A stretch of DNA of 64,000 bases from Vicinamibacteria bacterium (GTDB lineage: Bacteria; Acidobacteriota; Vicinamibacteria; Marinacidobacterales; Marinacidobacteraceae): the NCBI GenBank assembly GCA_965199715.1, contig OZ241322.1, forward strand, positions 1,888,001 through 1,952,000, given 5' to 3'. How positions within the stretch are numbered: the first letter of the stretch is position 1; each line of letters begins with the position of its first letter. The translations under genes and the position numbers were made by a program. A model generated the notes under the pieces. The model was not told the origin of the DNA. It was given only the letters and a program-made list of their open reading frames with translations, and did no database searches. Below, one piece after another: positions 2,704-39,700 of the stretch.

Positions 2704-2751
2704 CGTCAGGAACCGGAACGCCGTCCGCTCATGGGGGCGACGGCGGCGCGG

Positions 2752-4457: not shown

Positions 4458-4654
4458 CATCGCCGCCCGTGGGGGTCGGGGTGCGCCGGGAGTACCGGAC
4501 GACGCACGCCGAGGTTCTTGGGTTGAGAGAGGCCAGGATCCCTTGCGAAGTCGGAGATGTCCGCTCTCGAGAAATCCACCTGGCTCTTTCCCGGCTTGCG
4601 GCGGGCCTTGAAGATCGCCTCCAGAATGGCGGCGTAAGCGTTGGATTTGGTCAT
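4454..4654 (-). pseudogene. Truncated putative type II restriction endonuclease (N-terminal ~49 aa only)
   Basis: MTKSNAYAAILEAIFKARRKPGKSQVDFSRADI...PKNLG resembles the N-terminus of an endonuclease family found next to N4-C methyltransferases (recalled, not searched); the similarity ends after PKNLG. Confidence 0.55.
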
Positions 4655-4668
4655 GCGACAACCCCTCG

Positions 4669-5988: not shown

Positions 5989-5996
5989 GGCGACCC

Positions 5997-7154
5997 CTAG
6001 ATGACGTTCCCCTCGGGGATCGCCGAGCCGCCGTGGAACCGGGCCAGCGAGAACGCCTCGATGTCCAGCGTCCGCGAAGCGCCGTCCACGATGACCTCCG
6101 AGATCGCCTTGCCCACCGCCGGAGCGTGCTGCATGCCGTGGCCGGAGAATCCGTTCGCCAGCACGAAGCGCGGCAGCTCGGGGGTCGGCCCGAGGATCGC
6201 GTTGTCGTCCGGCGAAATCTCGTAGAGCCCGGCCTGCGGGGCCTTCATGGAGGCCTTTTCGAGCGGCGGGAGCCGTCGCGCCGCGTCCTCCCACACGCCG
6301 GCGAGAAAATCGAGATCCGGCGTTTGCGAGAAACTTGGCGGCTCGTCCGGGTCCGAGCGGCCGATCAGCATGCCCCCGCTGTGGAGGTGCATGTACACGC
6401 CCGTACCCCAGTCGATCGTGAGCGGCATCCGCTCGGCGGTCCACCCGAGCGGCTTGGTCGTGAAGAACTGGCGCCGCGCCGGCGACACCGGGACGTTCAC
6501 GTCGAGGAGCGCGCCGACCTGGCCGGCCCACGGCCCCGCCGCGTTCACGAGCCACGCGCACTCCCAGCGCTCGCCGCCGGCCGTGAGCGCGAATCCGCCG
6601 CTCGGGAGGGGCTCCGCCGCGGTCACTTCGCACCCGCGCCGAAGCTGTGCGCCGCCGCCCCGCGCGAGCGCCGCGTACCCGGCCACGAGCGCGGCGGGCG
6701 TGGCCACCCCGTCCTCGGGGCAATACGTCGCCCCCGCCAGATCGTCGGTGCGGACCCCGGGGGCGAGCCGCCGCGCCTCCTCGGGCGAGATCACCTCCAC
6801 CGGCGCTCCGAGCGCCCGCTGGCGCTCGGCCGTCTCCGAAAACCGCCGGAGGTCCGCTTCCGAGTCCAGCAGGAACAGATAGCCGTCCTGCGCGAAATCG
6901 GCGTCCACTCCGGTGCGCTCGCGGAAGTTCCGGATCTCCTCGATCGAGTAGCGGGACAGCGCGACGTTGGCGGCGGTGGTGAACTGGAGCCGCACGCCGC
7001 CCGCCGCCTTCGCGGTGGTGCCGGTCCCGAGCGCTTCCTCCCGCTCGAAGACGACGATCCGGCCCGGCCTCCGCTCGGCGAGGTGCGCGGCGATCGAGGC
7101 GCCGATCACGCCCCCGCCCACGATCGCGATCTCGGCCGTGCGTCGGGGACTCAT
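5997..7154 (-). CDS. FAD-dependent oxidoreductase (DAO / sarcosine oxidase beta family)
   Basis: IAIVGGGVIG Rossmann motif, GTTAKAAGGVRLQF, VNAAGPWA, ANGFSGHGMQHAPAVG. Confidence 0.9.
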   Translation of the reverse strand: MSPRRTAEIAIVGGGVIGASIAAHLAERRPGRIVVFEREEALGTGTTAKAAGGVRLQFTTAANVALSRYSIEEIRNFRERTGVDADFAQDGYLFLLDSEADLRRFSETAERQRALGAPVEVISPEEARRLAPGVRTDDLAGATYCPEDGVATPAALVAGYAALARGGGAQLRRGCEVTAAEPLPSGGFALTAGGERWECAWLVNAAGPWAGQVGALLDVNVPVSPARRQFFTTKPLGWTAERMPLTIDWGTGVYMHLHSGGMLIGRSDPDEPPSFSQTPDLDFLAGVWEDAARRLPPLEKASMKAPQAGLYEISPDDNAILGPTPELPRFVLANGFSGHGMQHAPAVGKAISEVIVDGASRTLDIEAFSLARFHGGSAIPEGNVI

Positions 7155-7164
7155 GGAGGGGCGG

Positions 7165-7170
7165 TAAAAT
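7165..7170 (+). promoter_or_regulatory. -10 box (TAAAAT) of probable leaderless gltA transcript
   Basis: TAAAAT lies 7 nt before the TTG start at 7178, in a 23-bp divergent intergenic gap with no SD. Confidence 0.5.
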
Positions 7171-7177
7171 TATCCGC

Positions 7178-8488
<1,311 letters not shown>

Positions 8489-9643
8489 GACAGGCGGTCC
8501 ATCCGCCTCGAGGGGAGAATCCAGCCGTCCGCGCGGCGCCGCTCCTCGTCGCCGCCGTACACCGCCGCCACCTCCACCGGGAAGGCGTCGAGGTGGCCGG
8601 CTACCCGGCGGGCGCCCGACAGCCTCCCGGACGAGAGCGCGCCGGCCGACTTGCATTCGACGAACGTCAGTCGATCCGGTCGCTGGATCACGAGGTCCAC
8701 TTCGGCGCCGTTGCAGTCCCGATAGAACGAGAGCAGGCGGTCCTCCTCGACGAGCTTCCGCGCCTCGGAAAGGACCCACGTCTCGAACGGCGCGCCCCGC
8801 AGCGGGTGGCTGCGAAGGTGGGCCGGCTCACGGATCCCGAGCAGGCGAGTCCGGCGTCGTGGAACGCCAGTTTCGGGGCCTTCCCCGGCCGCTTGCGGAC
8901 GTTCGCGTGGAAGGGGCGAAGCCGGAACACGACGTAACCGGCCTCCAGCACCGACAGCCACGTCCTCGCCGTGGGTTGGGAGATCCCGTAGGCCCTGGCG
9001 AGCGACGCCAGATTCAGCAACTGCGCGGTCCGTCCGGCGCACGACTCGAGGAAGCGCCGGAACGTCTCGAGATCGCCGACGTTGAGCGCCTGGCGCACGT
9101 CCCGCTCAATGTACGTGCGCACGTAGCTGCCGAGCCAGCGCGACGGTTGCCGGCCTCTGTCGAAGACGCGGGGGAAACCGCCGGCGAGCAACGCCTCGTC
9201 GAGAGTGGCCGGCGGCTTCTCGAAACGCTGGATCTCGGCCCAGTTCAGCGGCAGGAGTTCCAGAAGCTCGGTCCGGCCGGCGAGCGACCGGTCGCCCGGA
9301 TCCCGGACGGAACCAGTCAGGATCCAGCGTCCGCGCGCCGGGTTCTCGTCCACGATCCCCTGGAGGTGCGAGAGCAGGTCCGGCGCGCGCTCGATCTCGT
9401 CGAGGACTGCGTCGTGCGGGAACTGCGCGAGGAATCGGCGCGGGTCCTCGACCGCGAGGGAGCGCGTGTCGAGCTCCTCGAGCGAGGCGAAGGGCCGGTC
9501 GCCGAAGACATGGCGGCAGAGGGTCGTCTTGCCGCTCTGCCGGGGACCGGTGAGCGTGACGACCGGCGCCAGGCTGGCCGCGACCCTGACTGCCGGCGCG
9601 AGATCCCGGCCAATCCAAGATCGAATCTTGAATCAGCTTGAGT

Positions 9644-10771
9644 TCAGGCGGCGACCAGCGTCTCCGCGGCGACCTCCCGCAGGGTCTCGCTGATGAGGCC
9701 GAGGCTCGTCTCGAGCACGTGCGGCTCGGCGCCGTAGCCGATCCGGAGGAAGCCGTCCATCTCGAAATGGCTGGCGGGGACGACCAGCAGGTCCTTCTCC
9801 AGGCGCAGCCGCTCGCCGAACTCCTCCGCCGGGATCGGATGTTCGTAGCGCACCGCGGCGATCGCGCCGGCCTCGGGGCGCGTCCAGCGGAGCCCGACCG
9901 GATGGTTCGCGTGGGACGCGATCCAGCTCTCGACCAGCGGAAGCTGGCGGCGCATGATCCCGCGGGTGCGCTCGAGGATCTCGGGCCGGCGGTCCAGCGC
10001 GATCCGCGCGAGCCGGTCCGAGAGCGCGCTGATGGCCAGCGTGTTGTAGTCGCGGTGGCCCCAGAGCTCGTTCGCCCGATCCTCGGTCGTCACGATCCAG
10101 CCGACCCGGAGCCCGGGCAGCCCGAACGCCTTGGAGAGGCCGGCGTTCAGGAAGATGCGATCCACCCGGCCCCAGAACGTCGGGCACTCGACGCCGTTCA
10201 GTTCCGCGCCGCGATAGACCTCGTCGGCGAGCAGCCAGGCGTCCGAGCGGTTCGCGACGTCCGCGATCCGGTCCATCTCCCGCTCCGTGAGCACGCGGCC
10301 GGTCGGGTTGTTGGGGTTGCAGACGCAGATCAGCTTGGTGCGCTCGGTGACCGCGGCCTCGAGCGCGTCGAGGTCGGGCCGCCAGCCCTCCGCTTCGACC
10401 AGCGGGAAGGGGATCACCCGGGCGCCGAGCGACCGGCAGGCGCCGATGATCTGCATGTAGTTCGGGACCATCGCCACGACCTCGTCGCCCGGGTTGAGGG
10501 AGACGAGCGCGGTCAGGAAGTTGGCCTCGGCGGTTCCGTTGGTGATGAGCACCTGGTCCCGGTTCGCGCCCGGGTGGAGCGCGGCGACCCGCTCCCGCAG
10601 CGGAATCGTGCCGTTGCTCTGCGGATAGCCGAGCAGCGTGTCCCCGAGATCGCGGTCGCCGACGAGCTCGGCGAGCGTCATCGGGTGGACTCCGCTTTCC
10701 GAAATGTTCCAGCGCACGGTGTTTTCCCACCGGCACAGGCTGCGCTCCATGACGAACGGCACGAACTTCAT
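9644..10771 (-). CDS. Class I/II PLP-dependent aminotransferase
   Basis: Start ATG at 10771 (MKFVPFVMERSLCRWEN...). CNPNNPTG, ADEVYRG, GLSKAFGLPGLRVGW. Confidence 0.92.
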   Translation of the reverse strand: MKFVPFVMERSLCRWENTVRWNISESGVHPMTLAELVGDRDLGDTLLGYPQSNGTIPLRERVAALHPGANRDQVLITNGTAEANFLTALVSLNPGDEVVAMVPNYMQIIGACRSLGARVIPFPLVEAEGWRPDLDALEAAVTERTKLICVCNPNNPTGRVLTEREMDRIADVANRSDAWLLADEVYRGAELNGVECPTFWGRVDRIFLNAGLSKAFGLPGLRVGWIVTTEDRANELWGHRDYNTLAISALSDRLARIALDRRPEILERTRGIMRRQLPLVESWIASHANHPVGLRWTRPEAGAIAAVRYEHPIPAEEFGERLRLEKDLLVVPASHFEMDGFLRIGYGAEPHVLETSLGLISETLREVAAETLVAA

Positions 10772-10794
10772 GGGCGGGAATCGTAGTCGGCCGA

Positions 10795-10800
10795 TACCAT
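10795..10800 (+). promoter_or_regulatory. -10 box (TACCAT) of probable leaderless ispG transcript
   Basis: 7 nt before ATG 10808. A divergent TACGAT (10785-10780, minus strand) lies 8 nt before the aminotransferase ATG. Confidence 0.5.
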
Positions 10801-10807
10801 TGGCGGC

Positions 10808-11938
10808 ATGGAGCGCAATCCCACTCGCCGCGTCCCCGTCGGTTCGGTGGTCGTCGGCGACGGCAACCCGATCGTCGTCCAGAGCATGTGCGCGACCCAC
10901 ACCCGGGATGTGGACGCGACCGTGGCCCAGACCGAGGCGCTCCGCGCCGCCGGGGCCGGCATCGTGCGGGTCGCGGTGGACAGCCGGCGGGAGGTCGATG
11001 CGCTGGCCGAGATCCGCAAGCGCACGCCGGCGAACCTCGTGGTCGATCTGCAAGAGAGCTACCGCCTCGCCGAGAGCGTCGCCCCGCACGTGAACAAGAT
11101 CCGGTACAACCCCGGGCACCTCTGGCACCACGAGACCTCGCGCCCGGTTCCGGACAAGGTCCGCTACCTCGCGGACGTCGCCGGCGAGCACGGCTGCGCG
11201 ATCCGCGTCGGGGTCAACTGCGGCTCCATGGACCCGGCGCACCAGGACCGCTTCGACGACGACCCGGTGGGGGCGATGGTCGCTTCCGCCACCGAGCACT
11301 GCGAGCTCCTGGACCGGTTCGGGTTCACCCGCTACGTGGTCTCGCTGAAGGACTCGGACCCGGCGAACGTCATCGACGGGAACCGGCGCTTCGCCGCCGA
11401 GCGTCCGGACGTGCCGCTCCACCTCGGCGTCACCGAGGCCGGGATGCCCCCCGAGGGCGTCATCAAGACGCGCATCGCCTTCGAGCAGCTCGTGAGCCGC
11501 GGCATCGGGGACACGGTGCGGGTCTCGCTGACCCTCCCGAACGTCCGCAAGCCCGAGGAGGTGGAGGCGGGCCACCAGATCCTCACCGACATCGCGAACG
11601 GGCGCTTCCGTTCGGTTCCCGAATTCCCGAAGGACCGGCTCAACATCATCTCCTGCCCGTCCTGCTCTCGCGTCGAGAACGAGCAGTTCATCGAGTTGGC
11701 CGAGGACGTGCGCGAGATGACTCGCTACGCCGAGAAGCACGCGATCACGATCGCGGTCATGGGGTGCCGGGTGAACGGCCCCGGCGAGACCGACGACGCC
11801 GATCTCGGGCTCTGGTGCGGTCCGGCCTTCGTGAACCTGAAGAAGGGGCCCGAGTCGCTCGGCGCGTACCCCTACGGCGAGATCCTCGGCCGCCTGAAGG
11901 TCGAGGTGGATCGCCTCATTCAGCAGCGCGCGGGCTGA
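10808..11938 (+). CDS. ispG: (E)-4-hydroxy-3-methylbut-2-enyl diphosphate synthase
   Basis: [62 protein letters not shown]. Confidence 0.96.
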
Positions 11939-28345: not shown

Positions 28346-29041
28346 ATGGCGAACGAACCGGCGGTCCGGACCGAGAATCTGTGGAAGGTCTTCACCCAGG
28401 AGGCCGAGGAGGTCCACGCGGTCCGGGGCGTGGACCTCGCAGTCGCGTCGGGCGAGTTCACGGCGCTCGCCGGCCCCTCGGGATCCGGCAAGACCACGTT
28501 GCTGAACCTGATCGGCGGCCTCACCCGCCCGACGAGGGGCGACGTCTTCGTGGCGGGGAAGGCGCTCGGCGGCCTGAGCAACCGGGAGCTCGCGCTGCTG
28601 CGCCTGAGCCAGGTCGGATTCGTCTTCCAGGCGTACAACCTGCTTCCGGTGCTGAGCGCGTTCGAGAACGCCGAGTTCCCGATGCTGCTCCAGGGCGTAC
28701 CGCCCGACGAGCGGCGCAAGCGCGTGGACGAGCTCTTCCGCCGCACCGGAATGGAGGGCCTCGAGGACCGGCGCCCGGGCAAGCTCTCGGGCGGGCAGCA
28801 GCAGCGCGTGGCCGTGGTGCGGGCGGTCGCGAGCCGCCCGGCGCTGGTGCTCGCCGACGAGCCCACCGCGAACCTCGATTCGGCGACGAGCGACGCGCTG
28901 CTCGACGTGATGGACGAACTGAACCGCGACCTCGGCGTCACCTTCGTCTTCGCGACGCACGACGCGCGGGTGATGGAGCGGTCCCGGCGGCTGATCCGGA
29001 TGGTGGACGGCGCGGTCGCGAGCGACGGGCGGCGTTCGTGA
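28346..29041 (+). CDS. ABC transporter ATP-binding protein (LolD-like)
   Basis: GPSGSGKTT, GFVFQAYNL, LSGGQQQRVA, LADEPTANLD. Confidence 0.94.
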   Translation: MANEPAVRTENLWKVFTQEAEEVHAVRGVDLAVASGEFTALAGPSGSGKTTLLNLIGGLTRPTRGDVFVAGKALGGLSNRELALLRLSQVGFVFQAYNLLPVLSAFENAEFPMLLQGVPPDERRKRVDELFRRTGMEGLEDRRPGKLSGGQQQRVAVVRAVASRPALVLADEPTANLDSATSDALLDVMDELNRDLGVTFVFATHDARVMERSRRLIRMVDGAVASDGRRS

Positions 29042-30189
29042 GGCGCGCCGCCCTTCTGGCTGGCCTGCTCGGCGCGGCCGTCCCCGCAGCGGCGCAGCCG
29101 GTGACCGGGTACTTCCAGACGGTCCCGATCGCCGCCGACGGCGGCCTGCTCGCCGACTTCACCCGCCTCCGGCTCGCGAGCGACGCGGAACTCGGCGCCT
29201 TCCGGTTCGAGGTCGCGTGGGAGCACGTCCTGACGCTGCGGCGCAACGACGTGCTGCCGGGGTTCACGCTGGGAACCGCGCCCGGCGGCGGGGAGTGGCT
29301 CGACCTCGAATGGACGCTCGCCGAGGGCGAGCACGGGGAATGGCGGCACCGGTTCGACCGGCTCAGCGTCTCGTGGACTCCCGCCGAGACCCTCGAGATC
29401 CGCGCCGGACGGCAGGCGGTCTCGTGGGGCACAACGCTGTTCCTGACCCCGGCCGATCCGTTCACCCCGTTCAACCCGGTGGACCCGTTCCGGCAGTTCC
29501 GGGCCGGCGTCGATGCAGCGCGGGTGCGCTTCTACCCCGGCGCGCTCAGCGAACTGGATCTGGTCGTGCGCCCGACCCCCTCGCCGGACGGAGACGAAAT
29601 CACCGCGGTGGCGCGCGGCCTGACCACCGTGCGGAACTGGGAGATTTCCGGATGGGCCGGCGCGCTCTACGGCGATCCGGCGGCGGCGGGCGCGTTCGCG
29701 GGCGCGCTCGGCGCGTGGGCGGTGCGCGGCGAGACCACGCTCCGAAGCCTCGAGGATCGCACGGCCTTCCGCGGCGTTCTCGGCGTGGACCGCGTGCTCA
29801 AGCTCGCCGGGCGCGACTTCTCGATCGCCGCCGAATACCAGCGCGACGGACTCGGCGCGGCCGACCCCGCGGAATATCTGGACGTGCTGCGGTCGGACTC
29901 CTTCCGGCGCGGCGAACACCAGGTGCTCGGACGCGACGAGGCCGTGCTCCAGGCGTCGTACGCCCTCCACCCGCTGTGGAGCATGAGCGGCCTGTGGTTG
30001 GTGAACCTCAACGACGGCAGCGGCGTCCTCGGCCCCGCGCTCGGCTGGTCCGTAGGCGAGGAGTTCAACCTTGCGGCGGGCGCGTTCCTCGGCTTTGGGG
30101 CCGACGACCAGACTCTCGCGCGCCCCATCCCGTCCGAGTACGGCCTGGCCAAACTGACCGGGTACGTGTCGTTCAGTTGGTATTTCTGA
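29038..30189 (+). CDS. Putative outer-membrane beta-barrel protein
   Basis: GTG 29038 overlaps the previous stop; signal peptide, DRL...GRQAVSWG...GVDAAR, alternating strand pattern, C-terminal YVSFSWYF (BAM-type terminal Phe). Confidence 0.75.
   Translation: MRRAALLAGLLGAAVPAAAQPVTGYFQTVPIAADGGLLADFTRLRLASDAELGAFRFEVAWEHVLTLRRNDVLPGFTLGTAPGGGEWLDLEWTLAEGEHGEWRHRFDRLSVSWTPAETLEIRAGRQAVSWGTTLFLTPADPFTPFNPVDPFRQFRAGVDAARVRFYPGALSELDLVVRPTPSPDGDEITAVARGLTTVRNWEISGWAGALYGDPAAAGAFAGALGAWAVRGETTLRSLEDRTAFRGVLGVDRVLKLAGRDFSIAAEYQRDGLGAADPAEYLDVLRSDSFRRGEHQVLGRDEAVLQASYALHPLWSMSGLWLVNLNDGSGVLGPALGWSVGEEFNLAAGAFLGFGADDQTLARPIPSEYGLAKLTGYVSFSWYF
30154..30176 (+). repeat. Left copy of 23-bp perfect direct repeat bounding the island
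   Basis: CTGACCGGGTACGTGTCGTTCAG is identical at 39026-39048. Confidence 0.9.
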
Positions 30190-30394
30190 CGCGGGGCCGC
30201 AAACCGTTCCCGCTTGGGTGCGCCCGACGGAACCATGCCACAGGCAACGAAGCCGCCGACCCGCCCCTCCTGTCCTTCAGGACCACGTAGACATCTCATC
30301 CGCACAACGCCTCGTCCGTCCGGAATCGGTGCCCGCCGCTACGCTCGGAACGCTCCGCAGTACCGCGTGGCGCGGCATACAATCCACTGTCACC

Positions 30395-31429
30395 ATGCCG
30401 AGCACGTATCAGACGATTCCGACCTCTCGAATTGACTTCGACCGGGAAAACCCACGGATCAAGGTTGCCTTGGAAAAGTACGGCGACAAGCTCAATGAGC
30501 CCCGCATCCGATTCGCGCTGCAGACCGCCACGGAGGGGTCGGCCAGTGCGTCCTCCTATCGCGCCCTAAAGGACTCCATCAGAGCGGCGCAAGGCATTTC
30601 CGTGCCAATCGTCCTGAAGCCTCAGGATGACCGTTTCGTGTGTATTGACGGCAACACCCGCTTGGCAATCTACCAAGAGCTCCACGACGAGAGTCCCCAC
30701 GTAGGATGGGACACCATAGACTCCCTGGTTTTGGAGCATCCCACTCCCGTAGATATTGAAACGATTCGCGTTACCGCACATCTTGTGGGCGCACGTGAAT
30801 GGCCCGCATACGAAAAGGCGCGCTATCTTCACCATCTGCGCAATGTCGAATTCATGAGTTACGACGAGTTGATCGCACGATGCGGTGGGAACAGAAAAAC
30901 AATCGATCAGCAAATTGATGCCTTCCATGACATGAATGAGTACTATCGAGACTTGGGGAGTGACGATGCGTTCCGAGTCGATCGCTTCAGCGGATTCGTC
31001 GAGTTGCAAAAGCGAGGCATCAAGGAAGCCATCTTTGACGCTGGTTTCGAACTTACGGACTTCGGTGGCTGGATTCGCACGGGCAAGATCTACAAGCTGG
31101 CCGATGTCCGTATGCTGCCCCGCGTCCTCGCTGATCCAGAAGCGCAGGAGGCCTTGGTCGAGGGCGGGATTCGTGCAATAGAGCGCGCCAATGACATCGC
31201 AACGAGAAACCGCCGTCCCAGCGCGCGCTCTTCGGCTGCTGAGCTCGCAGTGGCCGATGCCGGTCTCACGCTGTTGGCGGAGGCACTTCAACAGAAAATC
31301 AACGCTCTACCACGAGAGGAGTTCCTAGCGCTTCGCGATCGGCGCGGCGATACAGAGTCGCAAGCTGTAGATGCCTTGGAGATTCTCGCGACGTCGCTTC
31401 GGGACCTTCTTCAAGATGTCACCAAGTAG
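30395..31429 (+). CDS. ParB/Sulfiredoxin-like N-terminal domain protein (copy 1)
   Basis: Start ATG 30395 (TACAAT at 30378); IDFDRENPRI, LKDSIRAAQGISVPIVL, VCIDGNTRLAI (ParB GxxR motif), HLVGAREWPAYEKA. Confidence 0.8.
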   Translation: MPSTYQTIPTSRIDFDRENPRIKVALEKYGDKLNEPRIRFALQTATEGSASASSYRALKDSIRAAQGISVPIVLKPQDDRFVCIDGNTRLAIYQELHDESPHVGWDTIDSLVLEHPTPVDIETIRVTAHLVGAREWPAYEKARYLHHLRNVEFMSYDELIARCGGNRKTIDQQIDAFHDMNEYYRDLGSDDAFRVDRFSGFVELQKRGIKEAIFDAGFELTDFGGWIRTGKIYKLADVRMLPRVLADPEAQEALVEGGIRAIERANDIATRNRRPSARSSAAELAVADAGLTLLAEALQQKINALPREEFLALRDRRGDTESQAVDALEILATSLRDLLQDVTK

Positions 31430-31865
31430 CGAGCATCAGCGGCTCACCGCTGTGACCGCCCGCGCCCTCAGGGTGCTCTACCCAAACTGGGACTTCAGGA
31501 TTGACCTTCCAGGGGAGCGGGTGCCGCGACTGCTCGGCGGTTATCGCCCCGATATTCTGGCGTGGAGCCCGGAGGATGGCGTCCGGCGAATCGTCGCCGA
31601 AGCGAAGACCGATGGCGACGTGGACAATCCCCACACACGCGCTCAGCTCCGCAGCTTTGTGGATTATCTCATTGGAGACTCTGTGCGTCAGGGCACGCTC
31701 ATTCTTGCCATCAACCCAGTCGCGGCTCCGACGGCGGTTCGCGTTCTACGCCTTCTGTGCGGTGGACACACGTCGCGGAATTTGCGCGTCTGGTACTTCG
31801 ACGGATTGGATTTCTGGGAGCGCGCCGCACACGGCGGGGGCGACTTCAGTTGGCATTTGCGCTGA
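31416..31865 (+). CDS. Small PD-(D/E)xK-family putative nuclease
   Basis: Start ATG 31416 overlaps the upstream gene; SEHQRL helix, YRPDILA...IVAEAKT...HTRAQL. Confidence 0.7.
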   Translation: MSPSSEHQRLTAVTARALRVLYPNWDFRIDLPGERVPRLLGGYRPDILAWSPEDGVRRIVAEAKTDGDVDNPHTRAQLRSFVDYLIGDSVRQGTLILAINPVAAPTAVRVLRLLCGGHTSRNLRVWYFDGLDFWERAAHGGGDFSWHLR

Positions 31866-33307
31866 GGCGAAAGCCGACGCTTTCGCCGATACACGCGGCG
31901 TACCCGTACCAACTGGACGCCGTGCGGGCGCTGGAGGATCGGCCCTACGCCGCTGTCTTCCATGAGCAGGGTCTCGGCAAGACGAAAATTGCGATTGACC
32001 TGGCGCTCCAGTGGCTCAAGCGCGACCTAGTGGACACGGTGTTCATTGTCACGAAGAAATCGTTGGTTGAGAACTGGCGACGAGAAGTGGAGGCTCACTG
32101 CGCGATCACACCGCACGTTCTGTCGAGTAACCGTGCGCGGAACAGCAAGGCACTCAACTCCCCAGTTCTTCTGTATATTATGCACTACGAGACTGTCGCG
32201 TCGAACAAAGGGACTTTGGGACTGTTCTTGCGGACGTGTCGAGTTGGATGCATTCTCGATGAAAGTCAGAAAATCAAGAACCCACAGACAGCGCTATCGC
32301 GAACCTTCCACGACATAGCGAGCGGGTTTGAACGTCGGGTCATCATGACGGGTACACCGGCCGCAAATCGTCCGTACGACATCTGGTCACAAATTCGTTT
32401 TTTGGACGGCGGACACGCTCTCGGCGAGTCGTTCGACAGTTTTCGTGCGGAGATGGATCTGCCAAATGTTGGCACTAGTGTGGACGAATACGGTCAACGC
32501 CTGAGCGCGATCCATCGACGACTAGCGCCATTTGCTGTGCGGGAGACAAAGGAGACGGCGGGCATTAGTTTGCCGGAAAAGACCATTGTCGGCCATCGAG
32601 TGGAAATGGAGATGCGACAAGCGGAACGGTATTCCGCGTACCGAGACGAACTTGCGTTGGAGTATTTGAGGGAGGACGGCAATGTCGAGGTGGACGACGC
32701 GGAGAACGTCCTCAAGCGGTTGCTGCGGCTGGTCCAATGCGCATCCAATCCGGCGTTGATCGATGAGGAGTATGACAGAGAGCCGGCGAAATTGCCGTTG
32801 CTGCGGGACCTGTGCCAGGAGTTGATTCCGGACTCGAAATTGATTATCTGGACAGGATTCGTGGCCAATGTGGAGTGGCTGGCAACGAAACTAGCCAGCT
32901 ACTCGCCATTGACTGTTCACGGAGGCCTCACGATGTCGCGACGAAATGACGCGATCTGCGAGTTTGTTGAGTCAAGACACTTGATTTTGATTGCGACGCC
33001 GGGAGCGGCCAAGGAGGGGCTCACTCTGACGGCGGCGAATCATGCGATTTTCTTTGATCGCAGTTTTAGTTTGGACGACTACCTTCAAGCACAGGATCGC
33101 ATTCACCGGATTTCTCAGACGCGAGAGACATTTGTGCACAACCTGATAGCGCAGAACACGATTGACGAATGGATCGATTCACTGCTCTCGGCGAAGTACC
33201 GTGCGGCGCAGATGGCGCAAGGTGACATCAGTGCGACACGGTTTCGCAACTCGTTCCAGTCGGATGTGGGCGAGATGCTTCGGGCGGTTCTCCGCTCCGG
33301 GCGGTAA
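31850..33307 (+). CDS. SNF2-family (SF2) helicase/ATPase
   Basis: Probable TTG start at 31850; YPYQ, FHEQGLGKT (Walker A), ILDESQKIKN (Walker B), MTGTP, KEGLTLTAAN, QAQDRIHRISQ. Confidence 0.92.
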   Translation: MAFALRRKPTLSPIHAAYPYQLDAVRALEDRPYAAVFHEQGLGKTKIAIDLALQWLKRDLVDTVFIVTKKSLVENWRREVEAHCAITPHVLSSNRARNSKALNSPVLLYIMHYETVASNKGTLGLFLRTCRVGCILDESQKIKNPQTALSRTFHDIASGFERRVIMTGTPAANRPYDIWSQIRFLDGGHALGESFDSFRAEMDLPNVGTSVDEYGQRLSAIHRRLAPFAVRETKETAGISLPEKTIVGHRVEMEMRQAERYSAYRDELALEYLREDGNVEVDDAENVLKRLLRLVQCASNPALIDEEYDREPAKLPLLRDLCQELIPDSKLIIWTGFVANVEWLATKLASYSPLTVHGGLTMSRRNDAICEFVESRHLILIATPGAAKEGLTLTAANHAIFFDRSFSLDDYLQAQDRIHRISQTRETFVHNLIAQNTIDEWIDSLLSAKYRAAQMAQGDISATRFRNSFQSDVGEMLRAVLRSGR

Positions 33308-33426
33308 TTGCGGGCGTTGCCCGGGGCGGGTTCGGACCACGCAGCTGGGTATCCGCCGCGGCGCGATATTGCGTTACGGGCGTAGGGGGCGGGGTGGTGG
33401 AGCGCATTGGGGGGTGCGGGGTCTGG

Positions 33427-33870
33427 ATGCTGGAGTCGCCCGATCGACTGCTGGATCAGTTTCTGGCGCAGCGGGGCTTCGCTGTGGCGTTCCACGAAGG
33501 GGACGCTGGTCAAGGCCTCGAAGGAGGCGGTCGCTTACCGGATCCTCGGGCCGGGATGGATGTCTGCCTGTATCGCGAGGAGGAGCGGGCGGCGGGGAAC
33601 CTTCGAAACGGGCGCAACCGGAAGCCGGCCTTACCGACGACGGGGAGATGGACCAAGGGGGTCCGCGGGGCCGCATGGGTGGACTCGGGTCGAGCCTCGT
33701 AGAGAAGCGCCTCCGGCGGCTGCTGGGGTTCGACGTGGAGACGCTCTCGAGGTCTCGCCGAACTTGTCTTGACGGTGACCGACGAGGCGCGATAGCAGCG
33801 GTCGCACGCGCTGGAGGCGACGTACGCGTTGATGTTCTTCGACGCGCTGCGGGTGAAGGTGCAGGATAAG
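33427..33870 (+). pseudogene. IS256-family transposase remnant
   Basis: Fragments across frames: PDRLLDQFL, GNLRNGRNRK, LTDDGEM, LVEKRLRRLLGFD, LEATYALMFFDALRVKVQD (IS256 'FFDALRVK' motif). Confidence 0.75.
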
Positions 33871-33916
33871 TGTCTGTGCGGCCCAACCCCATCACGGCCG
33901 TCCAATGCGCTCCCAG

Positions 33917-34560
33917 TGGAGTTGCCCCGGTTTCGTGGACGGCTGACCTCTAGCGAGGAGGGCGTCCACGATGATGACCAAGAAGAAGCGGAAGCGTCCG
34001 CAGCGGTGCGCTTCGGAACGCGGCTGGTTGAGCTGGCGCGCTCGGGCCGGAGTCCGGAGGACCCGGCGCGGGAGCTCGAGCCTACCGCCGCGATGATCCG
34101 GACCTGGCGGCGGGCCGCGGACTTGGCCGAGGAAGCGGACGCCGACGGCTGGAGTCGGCCGGAGCGCGAGGAGATGCGCCGGCCGCGTCAGGAGAACTTC
34201 CGCCTCAAGCGCGAGCGGGAGATCCCGGGAAAGGCGGCGGCCTGGTTCGCCCGGGAGACCATCTCCGAGGGTGGAGGCTCATGAAGGCGCGCCGGGCCGA
34301 GTGTCCGATCGCCATGACGGCCCGCGTCCTGAAGGTCTCGAGGAGCAGGCGCTACGCGCGGCTGGGGCGCGAGCCGTCCTCTCGCGAGGGCGGACACGGC
34401 GCTGATGGAGGCGATCCGGGCGATCCACGAGGAGAGCCGGGAGGCGTACGGCGCGCCGCGGGCTCGGGCGGAGCCTCGCTCGCGGGAAGAGCGGGCGAGC
34501 CGGAAGCGGATCGCGCGGTTGATGCGGAGGCTGGGCGTTCAGGGAGCGTCGCGGCGGCTC
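33917..34560 (+). mobile_element. IS3-family element remnant (left end, orfA, 5' part of orfB)
   Basis: TGGAGTTGCCCCGGTTTCGTGGAC left IR; orfA LVELARSGRSPEDPARELEP...RLKREREIPGKAAAWFARET; orfB RVLKVSRS..Y, IRAIHEESREAYGAPR, RKRIARLMR. DDE domain missing. Confidence 0.85.
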
Positions 34561-34679
34561 GGGGAATCGCCTACTGATTTCTTGGTACAGTGCGCTCGAA
34601 TTCCGCCATGGGACCCAAAACGGGCCCCCGATCAGGTCGTTACGGAGAGAGCGAAGAAAGTGAACGGACAGACCGCCCA

Positions 34680-35702
34680 ATGAGTTCGCATGGCCCCACA
34701 ATCACTTTACTGGGAACGACCATCGAAGGAACGGAGGAGAGCCTCCCCATAGAAGATCTCCGCTTCTTCCCAGAGAACCCGCGTGTACTGGCTGCCGTGC
34801 GAGAAATTACGGGTTTCGAGGAGCTGACGTTAGAGGAAAAACAGGAGCAAATCTACAAGCGCCTGCTGAAGGAACCCAGTGTCAAGAATCTCAAGCCCGA
34901 AATCGAGCGTGATGGCGGGCTCCAAGTGCCGATCATCGTTCGCGTAGAGACCAACCAGGTAATCGAGGGAAACTCGCGCCTTGCGGTGTACCGCGCGCTG
35001 GCCGAAGACAATAGAAGCGACGAGCGATGGACACACATACGGTGCCACGTCTTCTCCGGGCTTACGGACGAACAACAAACACGGATTTTGAGTGCAACCC
35101 ATTTACAGGGCATCACCGAATGGCCGCCGTATGCGAAAGCACTCTTCTGCTTCACAGCCGTGGAAGAGCGTCAGGTACCGATCGAAGCGTTCTCCAGCCT
35201 CACTGGAATGGGGAAGGCCGAGATACAGAAGCAGGTCAAAATAGTCAAGATGATGCAAGAAAACGCCGACAACAACTACGCGAATTTCAGCTACTACGAC
35301 GTGTTGGTGCGTTCTCGCAAACTCGCTCCTGCGATCCAAGACAACGAGACGCTTCGCAAGAAACTTCTCAGCGATATCAAGACGAGTGCCTTTACAGCAC
35401 GAGCAATGCGCGATCAGCTTCCAACTATCATGGATAAGCCGCGCGTATTTCGAAAATATATGCAGGGCGGAGTGACACTGGAGGAGGCCTACGATCGTTC
35501 GAAAATTAGCGGAGCTGAGCAGCTTCTGAAGCGGGTCCTCACGCGGTTGAAGGAAATCGAGGCGCCGGACATTACGAGTTTGGAAGCAACGCGCGCGCGA
35601 GCTCTTCAAATGCACGCCCGAAAGATCGAGAGAGAGATTCGACGCGTCTTGAGTGGCGTCGAACGGCACTTGAAGTCCGACGGAGAAAAAGGGATTCCAT
35701 GA
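34680..35702 (+). CDS. ParB/Sulfiredoxin-like N-terminal domain protein (copy 2)
   Basis: Probable ATG 34680; LRFFPENPRV, IERDGGLQVPIIV, VIEGNSRLAV, HLQGITEWPPYAKA; paralogous to 30395..31429. Confidence 0.8.
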   Translation: MSSHGPTITLLGTTIEGTEESLPIEDLRFFPENPRVLAAVREITGFEELTLEEKQEQIYKRLLKEPSVKNLKPEIERDGGLQVPIIVRVETNQVIEGNSRLAVYRALAEDNRSDERWTHIRCHVFSGLTDEQQTRILSATHLQGITEWPPYAKALFCFTAVEERQVPIEAFSSLTGMGKAEIQKQVKIVKMMQENADNNYANFSYYDVLVRSRKLAPAIQDNETLRKKLLSDIKTSAFTARAMRDQLPTIMDKPRVFRKYMQGGVTLEEAYDRSKISGAEQLLKRVLTRLKEIEAPDITSLEATRARALQMHARKIEREIRRVLSGVERHLKSDGEKGIP

Positions 35703-37324
35703 CCGCGTTCGGATCCGGGAAACGCATCCTTCTGGTGGAGCCGGGATACCGAAACAAGTATCCCCCGCTAGGCCTCATGAAGCTGGCGGCGTACCACGGG
35801 CCGGAGGGCCGGAGAGATATGGTTCGCTTCGTGAAGGGTGAAGACCCCGAGGTTCTTGAGCACGCTTGGGATCGAGTCTACGTGACCACGCTGTTCAGCT
35901 TTGAGTGGAAGCGGACTGCGGAGGCCATCGATTTCGCAGTGCGGGCCGCACACGGACAGGCCGAGCGGGTCTTCGTGGGGGGTATCGCCGCCACATTGAT
36001 GTTCGAGGATTTTGTGCGGGAACCGCGGTGGGCGGGAGTTCGCTTCATCACCGGACTCTTGGATCAGGCGCCCGCTCAGTCGCTCCAACTCTCGACCGCA
36101 GACGGTGACTTCGGCGCGGATGACATGGATGGATTGCCGATTGAGGAACGGGTGCCCGACTACACGATCCTCGATCACGTGCGCTATGGGTATCCGGTTC
36201 ACGATGCGTACTTCGGGTACGCCTCACGCGGATGTGTGAGGAAATGCGCCTTCTGCGGCGTCCCCAAATTGGAGGGTGGACAGCGGGAAATGCCACCGCT
36301 TACGGGGATGGTGCGCGACGTGTACGATCGATTTGGGCCCAAGAAGGATCTCATTCTTATGGACAACAACGTTGCGGCAAGCACGCGGTATCGGGAAGTT
36401 ATTGCAGAGATCCGTGACGTGGGTTTCCATCGGGGTGCACGGTTGGAGCGGGGAGGGAACAAGCCGATTAAGCGCCGCGTGGACTTCAATCAAGGTGTGG
36501 ACGCACGTATTCTTGTGAAGTCGCCGATGTACCTTGAGGAAATGGCCACGATATGTATTGATCCACTGCGGATTGCGTTTGATCACGTCGGGATGCGCCG
36601 AGTCTACGAGCGTGCGGTTCGCATGGCGGCGGAAAATGGCCTCACGTCATTGTCCAACTACCTGCTCTACAACTTCAAGGACTCACCGCGGGATCTCTAT
36701 CGACGCATGAAGATCAACATCGCTCTGAATGAGGAGCTCGGAGTACGGATTTGGTCGTTTCCGATGAGATACCTGCCTGTGACCATGAAGGACCGCTCCC
36801 ACGTCGGCGAACGATGGAACCGTTACTTCCTGCGGTCATTTCAGCTCATGCTGCAGGCGACGCATGGAGTTGTGTCGGGGAATGGGGAGTTCTTTCATCG
36901 GGCGTTCGGAGACGGGGAGGAGCAATTCGAGGAGCTGCTAGCGCTTCCCCACGCCTTCATTTTCGCGCGGAGCTTTTACGATCAAGGGGCGGGACGCGGC
37001 GTTTTCGACGACTACCTGGCGCTTCGGCGGCGAGCGTCGGCGAGTCAGCGTGCCGATCTTGTCGCTGTGCTCAGCGAGGTGTTGAATCTCCGCCCACGGC
37101 GGGACGCATTTCGGCGTCTGTTGGCGGATCGGTCCGTGGACCGTCTTACGCGCGAGCTGGCGCGCTTTCACGCCATCGACACGCGAGCGCCCAAGGTTAC
37201 CGAAGTGTCGCGCTTGGTTTCGGAGGTCGCGCCGGAGGAGGTACGAATCGAGGACGCGGGCTTGTATGATCCAATCGGCGGTCAGCCGGAGTCCGTAGAG
37301 ACACCGCTGCGCGCGAGCGGATGA
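35699..37324 (+). CDS. Cobalamin-binding-domain radical SAM protein
   Basis: N-terminal ILLVEP..YPPLGLMKLA, VYVTTLF, VFVGGIAATL (B12-binding Rossmann pattern); SRGCVRKCAFC (CxxxCxxC), MDNN, DFNQGVDAR; ATGA overlap with the upstream gene. Confidence 0.88.
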   Translation: MTAFGSGKRILLVEPGYRNKYPPLGLMKLAAYHGPEGRRDMVRFVKGEDPEVLEHAWDRVYVTTLFSFEWKRTAEAIDFAVRAAHGQAERVFVGGIAATLMFEDFVREPRWAGVRFITGLLDQAPAQSLQLSTADGDFGADDMDGLPIEERVPDYTILDHVRYGYPVHDAYFGYASRGCVRKCAFCGVPKLEGGQREMPPLTGMVRDVYDRFGPKKDLILMDNNVAASTRYREVIAEIRDVGFHRGARLERGGNKPIKRRVDFNQGVDARILVKSPMYLEEMATICIDPLRIAFDHVGMRRVYERAVRMAAENGLTSLSNYLLYNFKDSPRDLYRRMKINIALNEELGVRIWSFPMRYLPVTMKDRSHVGERWNRYFLRSFQLMLQATHGVVSGNGEFFHRAFGDGEEQFEELLALPHAFIFARSFYDQGAGRGVFDDYLALRRRASASQRADLVAVLSEVLNLRPRRDAFRRLLADRSVDRLTRELARFHAIDTRAPKVTEVSRLVSEVAPEEVRIEDAGLYDPIGGQPESVETPLRASG

Positions 37325-38832
37325 GACGGGAACGCCCGGCGCTCGTCGGGGGCGATATCCTGCGGCTGGTCACATCGGGGATTTATGACGACCCCTTGAT
37401 GTTGTATCGGGAATACCTCCAGAACGCGGCGGATTCGGTGGAGATTGAGGCTGGTGGGAAGGGAGCGGCGCACGTCGTTCTCGATCGACTTGCCGGACGA
37501 GTAACCGTACGTGACGATGGTGCCGGGTTGTCGCCGGCCGAGGCGGTCAACCGGCTGACGGATGTGGGGAACAGCCCGAAGGTTCCTGGGCGTCATCGCG
37601 GGTTGCGCGGAGTTGGGCGTCTGTGTGCGCTCGCGTTCGCGGAGAGCGTGCACTTCACAACGCGCGCCAGTGGGAGGGAACCGGTGACGCGCGTCTCTTG
37701 GAGCGGGCGCGCTTTCCGCGAAGGAGCCGGGGTCGACATGGACGCGAGGGAGGCGATTGAGTCCTGTACTGAAGTCCAGACGCTCTTGGGAGGGGACTGG
37801 CCCGAACGGTTCTTTGAGGTGAGAGTGGAACGCGTGACGCGGATGGCGGCCGGACTGGTGCTCAACGAAGATGCAGTCCGACGGTACATTGGCGAGGTGT
37901 GCCCCGTTCCCTTGGATTCATCTTTTCCATTTGCCACTGAGGTGAACGCGTTCCTCAGTCAACACATCAACTACTTCGGGCTTGACGTGCGGCTCAATGA
38001 ACGGGAGAGGCCGATCAAGCGACCATACGGGAAGGGTGTGAGAGTGACGGACGAGCTATTGGTTCCGTTCGAGCGACTTGAGACTCGTCTGATTCCGCGA
38101 ATCGATTCGGACCGGCCGGCGGCCGTCGTGTGGCTTGCGCACACGCCGTATATGGGCTCGATCTCGAAGCGACTGGCGATTCGGGGCCTTCGTGCACGAG
38201 TCGGGAACGTGCAAGTGGGTGGGGATCACGTGTTCGAGAAATTGTTTCATGAGTCTCGTTTCAATGGGTGGTGCGTAGGGGAGGTCCATATTGCGGATAG
38301 TCGGATCGCCCCCAACGGGAGACGCGACTACTTCGAGGTGAACCCGCATCTGCGGAATCTCGAGAACCATCTTGGGACGGTCGCGCGGGAGATTGGCGGG
38401 AGGTGTCGGCGGGCCTCGTCGCAACGCAACAGAATTCGTAACGTTCGGACGGTCATCGGTCAGGTCAAGCGAGCTCGGGAGTTGGCGATATCGGGGTACC
38501 TGTGTAGGGAGGACGCAGCGCGGCTGTTGCAGCGCCAGCGGGCGCGGATGGAGGAGATCAGGAAACACGTGCGGCTGCTTCCGGCCGCCCTGGGCGTGGA
38601 GGGGGGCGAAATGGAGTCTCTTGAGAGCGAGTTGGAGGAGGTCGACTTGGAAGCGCTCGGGCGCCGCGCCAACGACAGACTGACTGACTTGCCGCCTACG
38701 TCGGCACGCGCCCTGCGGTCGGCCTTTGGGGCGCTCGCTGCGACCATGTCGGTCGACGCAGTCTTCGAAGTCATTGCGCTCGTCGAAGGCCGGCTGTCTC
38801 GTGAGCGGGCTTTTCGGGCGAGCCGAGCGTGA
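37321..38832 (+). CDS. GHKL ATPase (MORC/Hsp90-like, HATPase + S5 domain)
   Basis: YREYLQNAADS (ExxxNxxD), RDDGAGL, RGLRGVGRL, FTTR; second domain RVGNVQVG...CVGEVHI...PNGRRDYFE; helical C-terminus; ATGA overlap. Confidence 0.88.
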   Translation: MRRERPALVGGDILRLVTSGIYDDPLMLYREYLQNAADSVEIEAGGKGAAHVVLDRLAGRVTVRDDGAGLSPAEAVNRLTDVGNSPKVPGRHRGLRGVGRLCALAFAESVHFTTRASGREPVTRVSWSGRAFREGAGVDMDAREAIESCTEVQTLLGGDWPERFFEVRVERVTRMAAGLVLNEDAVRRYIGEVCPVPLDSSFPFATEVNAFLSQHINYFGLDVRLNERERPIKRPYGKGVRVTDELLVPFERLETRLIPRIDSDRPAAVVWLAHTPYMGSISKRLAIRGLRARVGNVQVGGDHVFEKLFHESRFNGWCVGEVHIADSRIAPNGRRDYFEVNPHLRNLENHLGTVAREIGGRCRRASSQRNRIRNVRTVIGQVKRARELAISGYLCREDAARLLQRQRARMEEIRKHVRLLPAALGVEGGEMESLESELEEVDLEALGRRANDRLTDLPPTSARALRSAFGALAATMSVDAVFEVIALVEGRLSRERAFRASRA

Positions 38833-38849
38833 CTTCCGCTGCGGCCGCT

Positions 38850-39060
38850 GCCCCACGCCTTCGCCCAAAGAAGACGGCGTCACCGCGCTCCTGCGGGGCC
38901 TGACCACCGTTCGGAGCTGGGGTGCGTATGCGCTCGACTGCTTTCCGGCCGGGGCGCTCCGAGGCTTCGGTGCTTACGACTCGGCGCCGTTGCGCCTGAC
39001 TCCGTCGGAATACGGGTCGGCCCGGCTGACCGGGTACGTGTCGTTCAGGTGGTACTCCGG
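38850..39060 (+). pseudogene. Diverged, internally deleted duplicate of the 3' half of the beta-barrel gene 29038..30189
   Basis: PTPSPKEDGVTALLRGLTTVRSW matches PTPSPDGDEITAVARGLTTVRNW (29571-29640); GFGAYD..TPSEYGSARLTGYVSFRWY matches GFGADD..IPSEYGLAKLTGYVSFSWYF. Confidence 0.88.
39026..39048 (+). repeat. Right copy of 23-bp perfect direct repeat
   Basis: Identical to 30154-30176. Confidence 0.9.
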
Positions 39061-39227
39061 ATTGGGCGAGGCGTTAGGCTGCTGCGTCCGAATTGGGTGG
39101 TTCACGCCCTCGGCCCCGCTATTGGTCGTGAGCGAACGCCTCGTCGACGAGTGCGCCGCCGACGTGCTGCTCGCGACGAGTCGATTCTGGGCTTCCGCAA
39201 CCCCCAAACCGTCTGGGAGCGCACCTG

Positions 39228-39700
39228 ATGCTGCGTGAAGTGCAACTTGAGAATTTCAAGTGCTTCGAGCACTTGAAGCTCGACTGCGCGCCGCTGAGCC
39301 TCCTCTGCGGACTGAATGGCACGGGAAAGAGCAGCTTGATTCAGGCGCTGCTCGTGCTGAGACAGTCGTTCGCGAGCCGCGCCCTCGAAGACGGGCGCCC
39401 TTCGCTTCGCGGGGAGCTCGCCGGTCTCGGTGATGCCTCGGATGTTCTCTTTCAGCATGCGAAGATGCCAGAAGCGGCCTTCTCTCTTGGTGCTGGGTCC
39501 GAGCGCGAGGCCTGGAGCAAGCGGTTCCGACTCTCGAGCATCGGTCGGTTCGCGGCCGTCCGCGCGGACGAGGAAGTCCCGCACGCCTAGCGAGACGCAA
39601 CCCCGTTCGGCGGGCGCATGCTGCACGTGGGGGCGGAACGGGCGGGGCCCCGCAAGGCCTTTCCTCTCGCCGAAAAGGAGGCCCAGCCGGAGCACTTCGG
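39228..39700 (+). pseudogene. ABC/AAA_21-type ATPase (DUF3696-associated type), N-terminal fragment
   Basis: LENFKCF..L...LSLLCGLNGTGKSSLIQALLVLRQS; in-frame TAG at 39588, then LHVGAERAGPR motif; signature and Walker B half absent. Confidence 0.75.

Follow-up and report, generated by a model that had tools for sequence, protein, structure and literature searches.

A radical SAM enzyme paired with an Hsp90-like ATPase forms the core of a mobile, modular, defence-type operon in a Vicinamibacteria genome

Introduction

The Dpd and Dnd/Ssp systems combine a modifying core with a ParB-superfamily protein (DpdB, DndB or DGQHR) and with swappable restriction modules, are carried on mobile elements and also occur as orphan cores. 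Here, we describe a locus that has a similar build, with a putative modifying core, and lies in a 64,000-nucleotide stretch of DNA from a Vicinamibacteria bacterium (assembly GCA_965199715.1, contig OZ241322.1, positions 1,888,001 to 1,952,000), which we refer to as the window. At its centre is a gene for a radical S-adenosylmethionine (SAM) enzyme, followed by a gene for an Hsp90-like GHKL ATPase. These two proteins, usually preceded by a member of the ParB/DndB superfamily, make up the core of the system. The original prediction, made from the sequence of the window, had read the gene as a cobalamin-binding radical SAM enzyme in a DNA-processing operon, with DNA or a nucleotide as its substrate, and had overlooked the mobile, modular and defence-type character of that operon. 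Our leading reading, which we hold tentatively, is that the enzyme is the catalytic subunit of a horizontally mobile, defence-type modification-restriction system akin to Dnd and Dpd and that it marks DNA by radical chemistry.

The SNF2-family helicase of the operon resembles DpdE in PADLOC (E 1e-31) but reaches only 20 bits against an NCBIfam cut-off of 500, and neither DpdA nor DpdC has a match among seven operon proteins. The sulfur-insertion genes of Dnd and Ssp (DndACDE, SspABCD) are likewise without a match among the operon proteins. Conversely, Dpd, Dnd and Ssp have neither a B12-type radical SAM modifier nor an Hsp90-like ATPase. The variant in the window has no DGQHR gene, and DndB/DGQHR-type proteins appear only in other variants and in a fusion protein.

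As an enzyme, the radical SAM protein is closest to the cobalamin-dependent class B enzymes MgmA, TsrM, TokK, CysS and OxsB and to AprD4, which bears a B12 domain; with all of these it shares an N-terminal cobalamin-type Rossmann domain and a CX3CX2C barrel. The match is close in fold (Foldseek E 1e-10 to 1e-7, Z 13–17), with an identity of only 11–16%. The histidine ligand motif is absent from the window protein, and class B enzymes in general are not known to carry it. The window protein differs from the class B set in having its own invariant motifs and an extra helical C-terminal domain, in being unclaimed by curated families and in its defence-like rather than biosynthetic context.

Radical SAM proteins have been met in defence before. 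Viperins act in such a context but have no B12-type domain, and they match the window protein weakly (Z 8.6–8.8). Ophion combines the radical SAM protein OpnA with PHP and phosphoribosyltransferase partners, which differ from the Hsp90-like, ParB and SNF2 proteins of the window, and is proposed to interfere with nucleic acids. One line of a 2026 preprint (10.64898/2026.10.19.760177) places a PAACC cyclase-like gene in a three-gene neighbourhood with 'HSP90 chaperone and Radical SAM' and reads this as an immune context. That neighbourhood, mentioned there without sequences, resembles ours in having an Hsp90-like ATPase gene beside a radical SAM gene. Modules of the ParB, SNF2 or nuclease type are absent from the preprint's description, and in the window's system we recognised no PAACC-like gene. 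In open-access papers and on bioRxiv we found no description of the system, although subscription journals or the supplementary tables of defence screens may hold one. On our leading reading, the system would be one of modification-restriction-like defence, with possibly unprecedented chemistry.

Architecture of the radical SAM enzyme

The radical SAM gene is an intact open reading frame, and the motifs on which the original prediction was built are all present in its 541-residue product (YPPLGL at residue 21, VFVGGIAAT at 91, SRGCVRKCAFC at 176, MDNN at 221 and DFNQGVDAR at 262), and DxHxxG is absent from this protein as had been remarked, the pattern D.H..G giving zero matches. These motifs are conserved across 31 diverse relatives and are therefore family signatures rather than chance occurrences. 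In that alignment, the motifs that are fully or nearly invariant are EP.Y.NKYPPLGLMK, VGG, RGC...C.FC, DNN and VDFNQG.DAR, together with R.AFD, SNY.LYNF.D.P.D.Y.R and SFPM.Y.P, and the invariant residues include P22, L26, G94, G178, C179, C183, C186, D222, N224, D262, Q265 and G266. The cluster motif (C179-x3-C183-x2-C186) is kept in 31 of 31 aligned members. Apart from these three cysteines, the protein contains only C286, and the cysteine-free N-terminal domain (residues 1–178) excludes an auxiliary cluster of the methylthiotransferase type there. We also considered a methylthiotransferase (MiaB/RimO) as the identity of the protein and rejected it, given the missing N-domain cysteine triad, the lack of a TRAM match and NCBIfam scores of 11.9–17.7 bits against cut-offs of 251–357. 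The C-terminal extension had been described as long and basic, which holds for its helical part (residues 431–496, net charge +6) and not for residues 497–541, which are predicted to be disordered and carry a net charge of −5; the net charge of the whole tail is +1.

An AlphaFold2 model calculated from the 31-relative alignment (mean predicted local distance difference test, pLDDT, 88.5; predicted template modelling score 0.86) contains a five-stranded Rossmann domain, a linker, a radical SAM barrel and a helical C-terminal domain. The barrel superposes on many radical SAM structures in both Foldseek and VIA-align. Foldseek ranks MgmA first (E 1.4e-10), followed by TsrM, an MtaB model, MiaB, TokK, AprD4, OxsB, CysS and RimO. 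VIA-align gives AprD4 a Z score of 17.0 (355 residues aligned, root-mean-square deviation 3.3), MgmA 16.5, TsrM 15.4, MtaB and MiaB about 15 and OxsB 14.0–14.3, with the viperin structures matching over the core. Judged from the predicted model, the protein is a member of the radical SAM superfamily that is class-B-like in architecture.

Sequence libraries place the protein in the superfamily without assigning it to a named family. When the family members were scanned one by one, 28 of the 31 matched PF04055 at E ≤ 0.1, the best at 4.3e-9. The NCBIfam models for RimO, HpnJ, lipid B12-radical SAM enzymes, the MgmA family and MiaB give 12–18 bits against cut-offs of 251–578, over only about 25–55 residues around the cluster motif. 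In agreement with the original prediction, we saw no clustering with characterised lipid, cofactor or tRNA enzymes (best NCBIfam score 17.7 bits against a cut-off of 357). A sequence search of the PDB returned cluster-motif matches only (E ~0.07), and the ESM Atlas returned only clusters named 'radical SAM protein'. The family is nevertheless large, with at least 7995 matches at E ≤ 0.001 among the 8000 candidates scored from a database of 90%-identity clusters, the closest of which are 69–74% identical to the window protein; clustering at 50% identity leaves 1568 matches at E ≤ 0.001, of which 268 reach E ≤ 1e-30. Members come from many phyla and from plasmids and phages, and the family is unnamed in Pfam, NCBIfam and PADLOC. 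An N-terminal SAP domain is present in one representative (E 1.6e-5), and a Pfam scan of the C-terminal extensions of members 680–820 residues long found nothing but one weak DUF3825 match. Among the longer members, one plasmid-borne match is annotated with an intein.

A constant core with interchangeable modules

The 80 genome loci that we analysed represent eight or more groups at the level of phylum or class, and their radical SAM proteins are 53–73% identical to that of the window; relatives in other phyla reach 70–73%. In a profile-based count, 75 of the 80 loci have a GHKL gene next to the radical SAM gene and in the same orientation (74 downstream, 1 upstream), as do all three of three plasmid loci. 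Two of the five loci that lack it (L040 and L056) end at contig edges. In two others, from Arenicellales genomes (L061 and L073), the operon stops after the radical SAM gene; repeated open reading frames (ORFs) of 443 and 210 residues near the L061 operon suggest insertion sequence (IS) copies that may have displaced the GHKL gene.

Six architectures are seen around the pair. The first is the six-gene form of the window, with 17 exact cases and near-variants, and the second differs from it by an additional DGQHR/DndB-type gene just ahead of the radical SAM gene. The third consists of DGQHR, radical SAM and GHKL genes with a PIN-like gene and a GHKL paralogue. In the fourth, the radical SAM gene comes after a GHKL paralogue and two further genes, which resemble genes of Marinitoga camini virus 1 annotated as a single-strand exonuclease (NurA-type) and a HerA helicase. 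The fifth adds to the core a DEAD helicase, an MZB-domain protein and a NERD-UvrD protein, and the sixth is the bare radical SAM-GHKL pair. The pair is thus the constant core, around which at least four alternative nuclease/motor modules are swapped, and its partners are ParB, DGQHR or DndB-like proteins. The radical SAM enzyme is also the most conserved protein of the operon, being 73% identical between the window and locus L001 as compared with 68, 46, 62, 54 and 59% for the other five. A search of longer proteins found a metagenomic chain of 1359 residues (P0272) that joins a DndB-like part (weak, E 0.0026), a radical SAM part (37% identity) and a GHKL part (31% identity, E 5e-54).

The distribution is patchy and mobile. 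Most loci are chromosomal. Members of the family are also present in 17 plasmid records, of which 7 are typed as conjugative, with ParA, toxin–antitoxin and integrase genes among the neighbours; carriers include Novosphingobium aromaticivorans DSM 12444 (plasmid pNL1), Rhizobium leguminosarum WSM1325 and Sphingomonas. A sample of 401 genomes from the phylum of the window yields 7 with the radical SAM gene, from 6 of 228 genera. A gene like the first ParB gene of the operon occurs in 5 of the 401, with a radical SAM-GHKL pair nearby in 4 of these 5. The ParB1-like gene without a radical SAM gene (L172 in genome G084, 1142–11903) stands in a defence island with a 1745-residue DEAD-MZB helicase, a Dam-type methylase, a NotI-type endonuclease and a DUF2130 protein. 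In one of the four genomes with the pair (G055; L173, 13377–14984), the gene after the ParB-nuclease-SNF2-ParB cassette encodes a canonical B12-radical SAM protein from outside the family (535 residues; PF02310 36.2 bits, PF04055 72 bits), and an IS comes next. The radical SAM-GHKL pair of the family itself is found some 7 kb upstream, beyond IS and integrase genes. Two B12-type radical SAM genes have thus been recruited to one cassette.

Viral relatives

The radical SAM protein matches phrog_9298 (E 3.2e-34) and 11 phage records, and in IMG/VR relatives are encoded in 472 of 569 pattern-matched stretches. We kept 80 viral loci for analysis, 2 of which yielded no ORF; a GHKL gene is adjacent in 16 of the 80, nearby in 1 and absent in 61. 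The 16 GHKL-adjacent loci (28–58% identity) show either gene order, and many stand beside integrases or recombinases. Their radical SAM proteins are 460–700 residues long and the one with GHKL nearby has 364 residues, whereas the genes without GHKL mostly encode 280–440 residues.

Neighbours were annotated for 12 of the GHKL-less viral loci and for 3 phage records. They include, at L106, DNA polymerase A with a Dam methylase, clamp and clamp loader; at L108, a RecA-like protein; at L123, a DnaB-like helicase and another radical SAM gene; and at L129, a primase-helicase-like DUF5906 protein. Bacteroides phage BI-TP1 has DNA methyltransferases beside the gene, phiCT453B has replication genes, and three loci have terminases (L117, L118 and L122); the neighbours of five others (L100, L102, L103, L107 and L124) are uninformative. 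Tandem radical SAM genes stand beside replication genes (DnaB-like helicase, beta-clamp-like) at L123 5947–8554 and L103 5899–8609.

The Hsp90-like partner

The GHKL protein contains the Bergerat motifs ExxxNxxD, DxGxG and GxxGxG (E31, N35, D38, D65, G67, G69, G94, G97 and G99), residues that are invariant or nearly so in 28 GHKL sequences. It matches PF13589 at E 1.5e-5, with 25.5 bits against a cut-off of 25, and the NCBIfam HSP90 family at E 1.2e-8. Its AlphaFold2 model (pLDDT 87.2) aligns with Hsp90/TRAP1 in Foldseek (E 2.5e-15), after which follows a long helical C-terminal region. Beyond the ATPase, E321 and R335, in a conserved PN.RRD loop, are invariant. A predicted complex of this protein with residues 6–496 of the radical SAM enzyme scored 0.00, which is uninformative either way.

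The N-terminal domain and cobalamin

The original prediction had called the N-terminal domain cobalamin-binding, with a structural model as the proposed check. The part of this claim that concerns fold is borne out, in that the modelled domain is of the cobalamin-binding type, and PF02310 matches 14 of the 31 family members when they are scanned one by one (best 1.6e-8). The window protein scanned alone has no PF02310 match. Aligned by itself in VIA-align, the N-terminal domain resembles those with which photocobilin (Z 9.9) and AerR (Z 9.1) bind B12. An hhalign alignment with a mutase-type domain of the host, which is not significant (E 0.16), sets the T-T-L and V-G-G of the family on S-I-L and V-G-G of the mutase. 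In the mechanism that we propose below, the N-terminal domain would probably carry methylcobalamin.

The island and operon in the window

As the original prediction had noted, the radical SAM gene has ParB-like and GHKL genes as neighbours, in a DNA-processing operon that has no biosynthetic (natural-product) genes nearby. The ParB-like gene lies upstream and the GHKL ATPase gene downstream, each overlapping the radical SAM gene by ATGA. The operon consists of six co-directional genes encoding ParB1, a PD-(D/E)xK nuclease, the SNF2 helicase, ParB2, the radical SAM enzyme and the GHKL ATPase (Table 1).

Table 1. Features of the low-GC island and its right edge (positions in the window)
Feature	Position	Strand	Remarks
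Low-GC island	30190..38850	.	~60% vs ~72% G+C; holds the whole system, ~8.7 kb
ParB/Srx-like protein 1 (ParB1)	30395..31429	+	Probable start ATG 30395, placed by homology
Small PD-(D/E)xK-type nuclease	31416..31865	+	Conserved PD...E-A-K-T motif (46-sequence alignment)
SNF2-family helicase	31850..33307	+	Probable start TTG 31850; PF00176 E 4.7e-25, PF00271 E 1.3e-13
IS3-family remnant, ~0.65 kb	33913..34577	+	orfA and 5' part of orfB, no DDE domain
ParB/Srx-like protein 2 (ParB2)	34682..35702	+	ParB1 paralogue; stop overlaps radical SAM start (ATGA)
Radical SAM enzyme	35699..37324	+	541 aa; Rossmann ~8-125, linker, barrel ~165-375, helical C-domain 375-496, disordered tail
Hsp90-like GHKL ATPase	37321..38832	+	Start overlaps radical SAM stop (ATGA); C-terminal helical, coiled-coil-like region
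Duplicate of 3' end of gene 28381-30189	38850..39061	+	71-76% identity, direct repeats D1/D2; island right edge

ParB1 has weak matches (NCBIfam TIGR03764, E 7e-4; phrog_3264, E 2.9e-6) and, in 46 sequences, the conserved motifs NPR, GG..P and EGN.RLA.Y. ParB2, with which it has motifs in common, matches phrog_3694 (8.8e-9) and ParB-like phrogs. The small PD-(D/E)xK-type protein, recognised by its conserved motif, has zero matches in the libraries searched. In PADLOC, the SNF2 helicase matches ZorD at 1.2e-40 and DpdE at 1.2e-31. The IS3 remnant, recognised by weak HTH_Tnp_1 and IS3 transposase matches and by reading of the sequence, separates SNF2 from ParB2, and the closest relatives are gapless at this position. 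A scan for promoters and terminators performed no better than on shuffled sequence.

The left bound of the island is the end of the gene at 28381–30189. At the other edge, 38850–39061 is a diverged, internally shortened copy of 29570–30189, the end of this flanking outer-membrane-type gene, which suggests from the sequence that the island integrated at the 3' end of the gene and displaced its old copy. No tRNA was found at the island edges. Just beyond the right edge, an ORF of 120 residues (39228–39590) is the N-terminal piece of an AAA_15/OLD-type ATPase (PF13175, E 7.8e-11) and looks like a truncated defence-type gene.

Assembled reads add a view of the island in its population. In one DNA run (X1), which covers the whole stretch, the flanks have a depth of about 150–160 and the island about 97–104, and a contig of depth 46.5 joins 30787 to 39024, with 27 letters on the shorter side. 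The depths of flank, island and junction add up, and the population therefore probably contains, besides the island-bearing form, one in which the island is missing or largely deleted; most of the system seems to be absent from about one third of it. The left break, at 30787, falls inside the ParB1 gene and not at the island edge. In the metagenome of the DNA run, the IS remnant shows multi-copy depth, variant contigs and contig breaks at 33913–34557; its raised depth and the variant contigs point to related IS copies elsewhere.

Two metatranscriptome runs, from one study and possibly from the same source as the genome, contain contigs over 30.9–32.5 kb and over 34643–38788, and 32743–34377 is uncovered in both. 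In both, the second contig starts at 34643, which is 39 nucleotides before the ParB2 start and just downstream of the IS remnant, and the contigs cover ParB2, radical SAM and GHKL and not the remnant. This hints weakly at transcription of the two halves of the operon, with a separate start past the remnant for the half that holds ParB2, radical SAM and GHKL; contigs of this kind cannot prove transcription or transcript ends.

Discussion

A constant core with interchangeable nuclease and motor modules is the anatomy of Dnd, Ssp and Dpd, and for this reason we favour DNA as the substrate. The ParB/DndB companions, the orphan cores, the phage homologues beside DNA methylases and the patchy, mobile distribution likewise argue for a self mark on DNA. 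In the mechanism that we propose, a [4Fe-4S] cluster held by C179, C183 and C186 would cleave SAM to a 5'-deoxyadenosyl radical, and the enzyme would modify the DNA of its own host, most likely by placing a C-methyl group on a base or sugar carbon, probably with cobalamin as the mediator. The Hsp90-like ATPase and the ParB-like protein would load or position the radical SAM enzyme on DNA. The swappable module, here ParB1, the PD-(D/E)xK nuclease and SNF2, would attack DNA without the mark, and the stand-alone relatives in phages would be orphan modifiers that shield phage DNA. We also put forward a more specific version, which we regard as doubtful: a cobalamin-dependent enzyme, loaded by the Hsp90-like ATPase and a ParB/DndB-like protein, would write a carbon-centred genomic mark that serves as the self signal for interchangeable nucleases, and phages would forge this mark with stripped-down copies. 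The mark could be a C-methyl on C2 or C8 of a purine or on a deoxyribose carbon.

Several observations weigh against an enzyme that marks DNA with the help of cobalamin. The partner ATPase resembles Hsp90/TRAP1, which handle proteins, and not MutL or MORC, and the closest match by both sequence profile and Foldseek is MgmA, a protein glutamine C-methylase (16% identity, profile E 0.015). The window protein by itself reaches only 16.6 bits for PF04055 against a cut-off of 29.5, and it has no PADLOC match at E ≤ 0.1, PADLOC having no model for the family. As regards cobalamin, the lack of a PF02310 match in the window protein is joined by hhalign comparisons of the family profile with the mutase-type and MetH-type B12 domains of the host that are not significant (E 0.16 and 0.64). 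AprD4, the best VIA-align match, bears a B12-like domain and is not known to use cobalamin, and the N-terminal domain may therefore be vestigial. The host genome (2.66 Mb, 93% complete) encodes three PF02310 proteins and has no match to CobS or CobD, and the host thus uses cobalamin and probably imports it. Among the loci, three have room for a GHKL gene but lack it (L029, L061 and L073), and the fifth of the genomes with a ParB1-like gene has no radical SAM gene. The fusion protein, finally, is a single metagenomic instance and could be an artefact of assembly or a frameshift.

The enzyme could instead act on a free nucleotide, as viperin and OxsB do, and yield a chain-terminating, toxic or signalling product or a modified deoxynucleoside triphosphate precursor, with the ATPase as a sensor or switch and the nucleases as co-effectors. 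We consider this unlikely, even though the viperins and Ophion provide precedents for nucleotide-directed radical SAM enzymes in defence. The fold matches include OxsB, a B12-radical SAM enzyme whose substrates are deoxyadenosine nucleotides, whereas the viperins reach only Z 8.6–8.8 against 17.0 and the PADLOC viperin models give no match. Phage relatives in replication modules would also suit modification at the precursor level, and an enzyme that is 73% identical where its partners are 46–68% identical fits a universal small substrate. However, the operons share no conserved kinase, phosphatase or transferase for nucleotides, and what constantly accompanies the enzyme is a clamp-like ATPase together with proteins of DNA-binding type. 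Swappable nuclease/helicase modules, moreover, typify systems in which DNA with a mark is distinguished from DNA without one.

The Hsp90-like partner, together with MgmA as the closest match, keeps a protein substrate in consideration. The enzyme would then modify a protein after translation, as the B12-radical SAM methylases MgmA and Mmp10 do, its target being the Hsp90-like partner or a clamped client, perhaps a phage protein; this we judge to be distinctly unlikely. The case for it is that MgmA leads both by sequence profile and in Foldseek, with a weak NCBIfam match to the MgmA family as well, and that the near-invariant partner has an Hsp90/TRAP1-like fold and keeps invariant residues outside the ATPase (E321 and R335), while the near-obligate pairing and the fusion would suit an enzyme–substrate or enzyme–adaptor pair. 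The likeness to MgmA is, however, at the level of fold only and is tied with that to enzymes acting on DNA, RNA and sugars. Relatives on 61 viral contigs and in 3 phage records have no GHKL neighbour, and the other partners (ParB, DndB, SNF2 and nuclease, plus the one SAP domain) point to DNA.

A role in the maintenance of plasmids or integrative elements, or in conflict between elements (partition, exclusion or addiction), rather than in anti-phage immunity strikes us as very unlikely. The two ParB-superfamily genes in the operon would suit it, as would the 17 plasmid records (7 conjugative) with ParA, toxin–antitoxin and integrase genes nearby and the polymorphism of the island in its population, but the window has neither ParA nor centromere-type repeats with the operon. 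Defence systems commonly ride such elements, most loci are chromosomal, and the nuclease and helicase modules match the defence models ZorD, DpdE and DrmD.

That the protein is simply a housekeeping or biosynthetic enzyme of a lipid, cofactor, tRNA or natural-product pathway, with DNA genes nearby by chance, is close to refuted, since its weak cluster-motif matches to RimO, HpnJ, lipid B12-radical SAM enzymes and MiaB stay at 12–18 bits against cut-offs of 251–578, the N-domain has no cysteine triad, and the gene is found in only 7 of 401 phylum genomes, in a low-GC island, with partners conserved over 80 loci and no biosynthetic neighbours.

The reading of a DNA-marking enzyme can be tested directly in culturable carriers, among them Novosphingobium aromaticivorans with pNL1, Rhizobium and Sphingomonas. 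Even if the substrate were a nucleotide or a protein, the enzyme would represent a new functional class of radical SAM protein with a B12 domain. Should the DNA reading be true, radical and possibly B12-dependent chemistry would join methylation, phosphorothioate and 7-deazaguanine among the marks that separate self from foreign DNA, and a protein of the Hsp90 family would have a DNA-directed job. A carbon mark of the kind proposed would be the first epigenetic DNA mark made by radical chemistry for discrimination between self and non-self.

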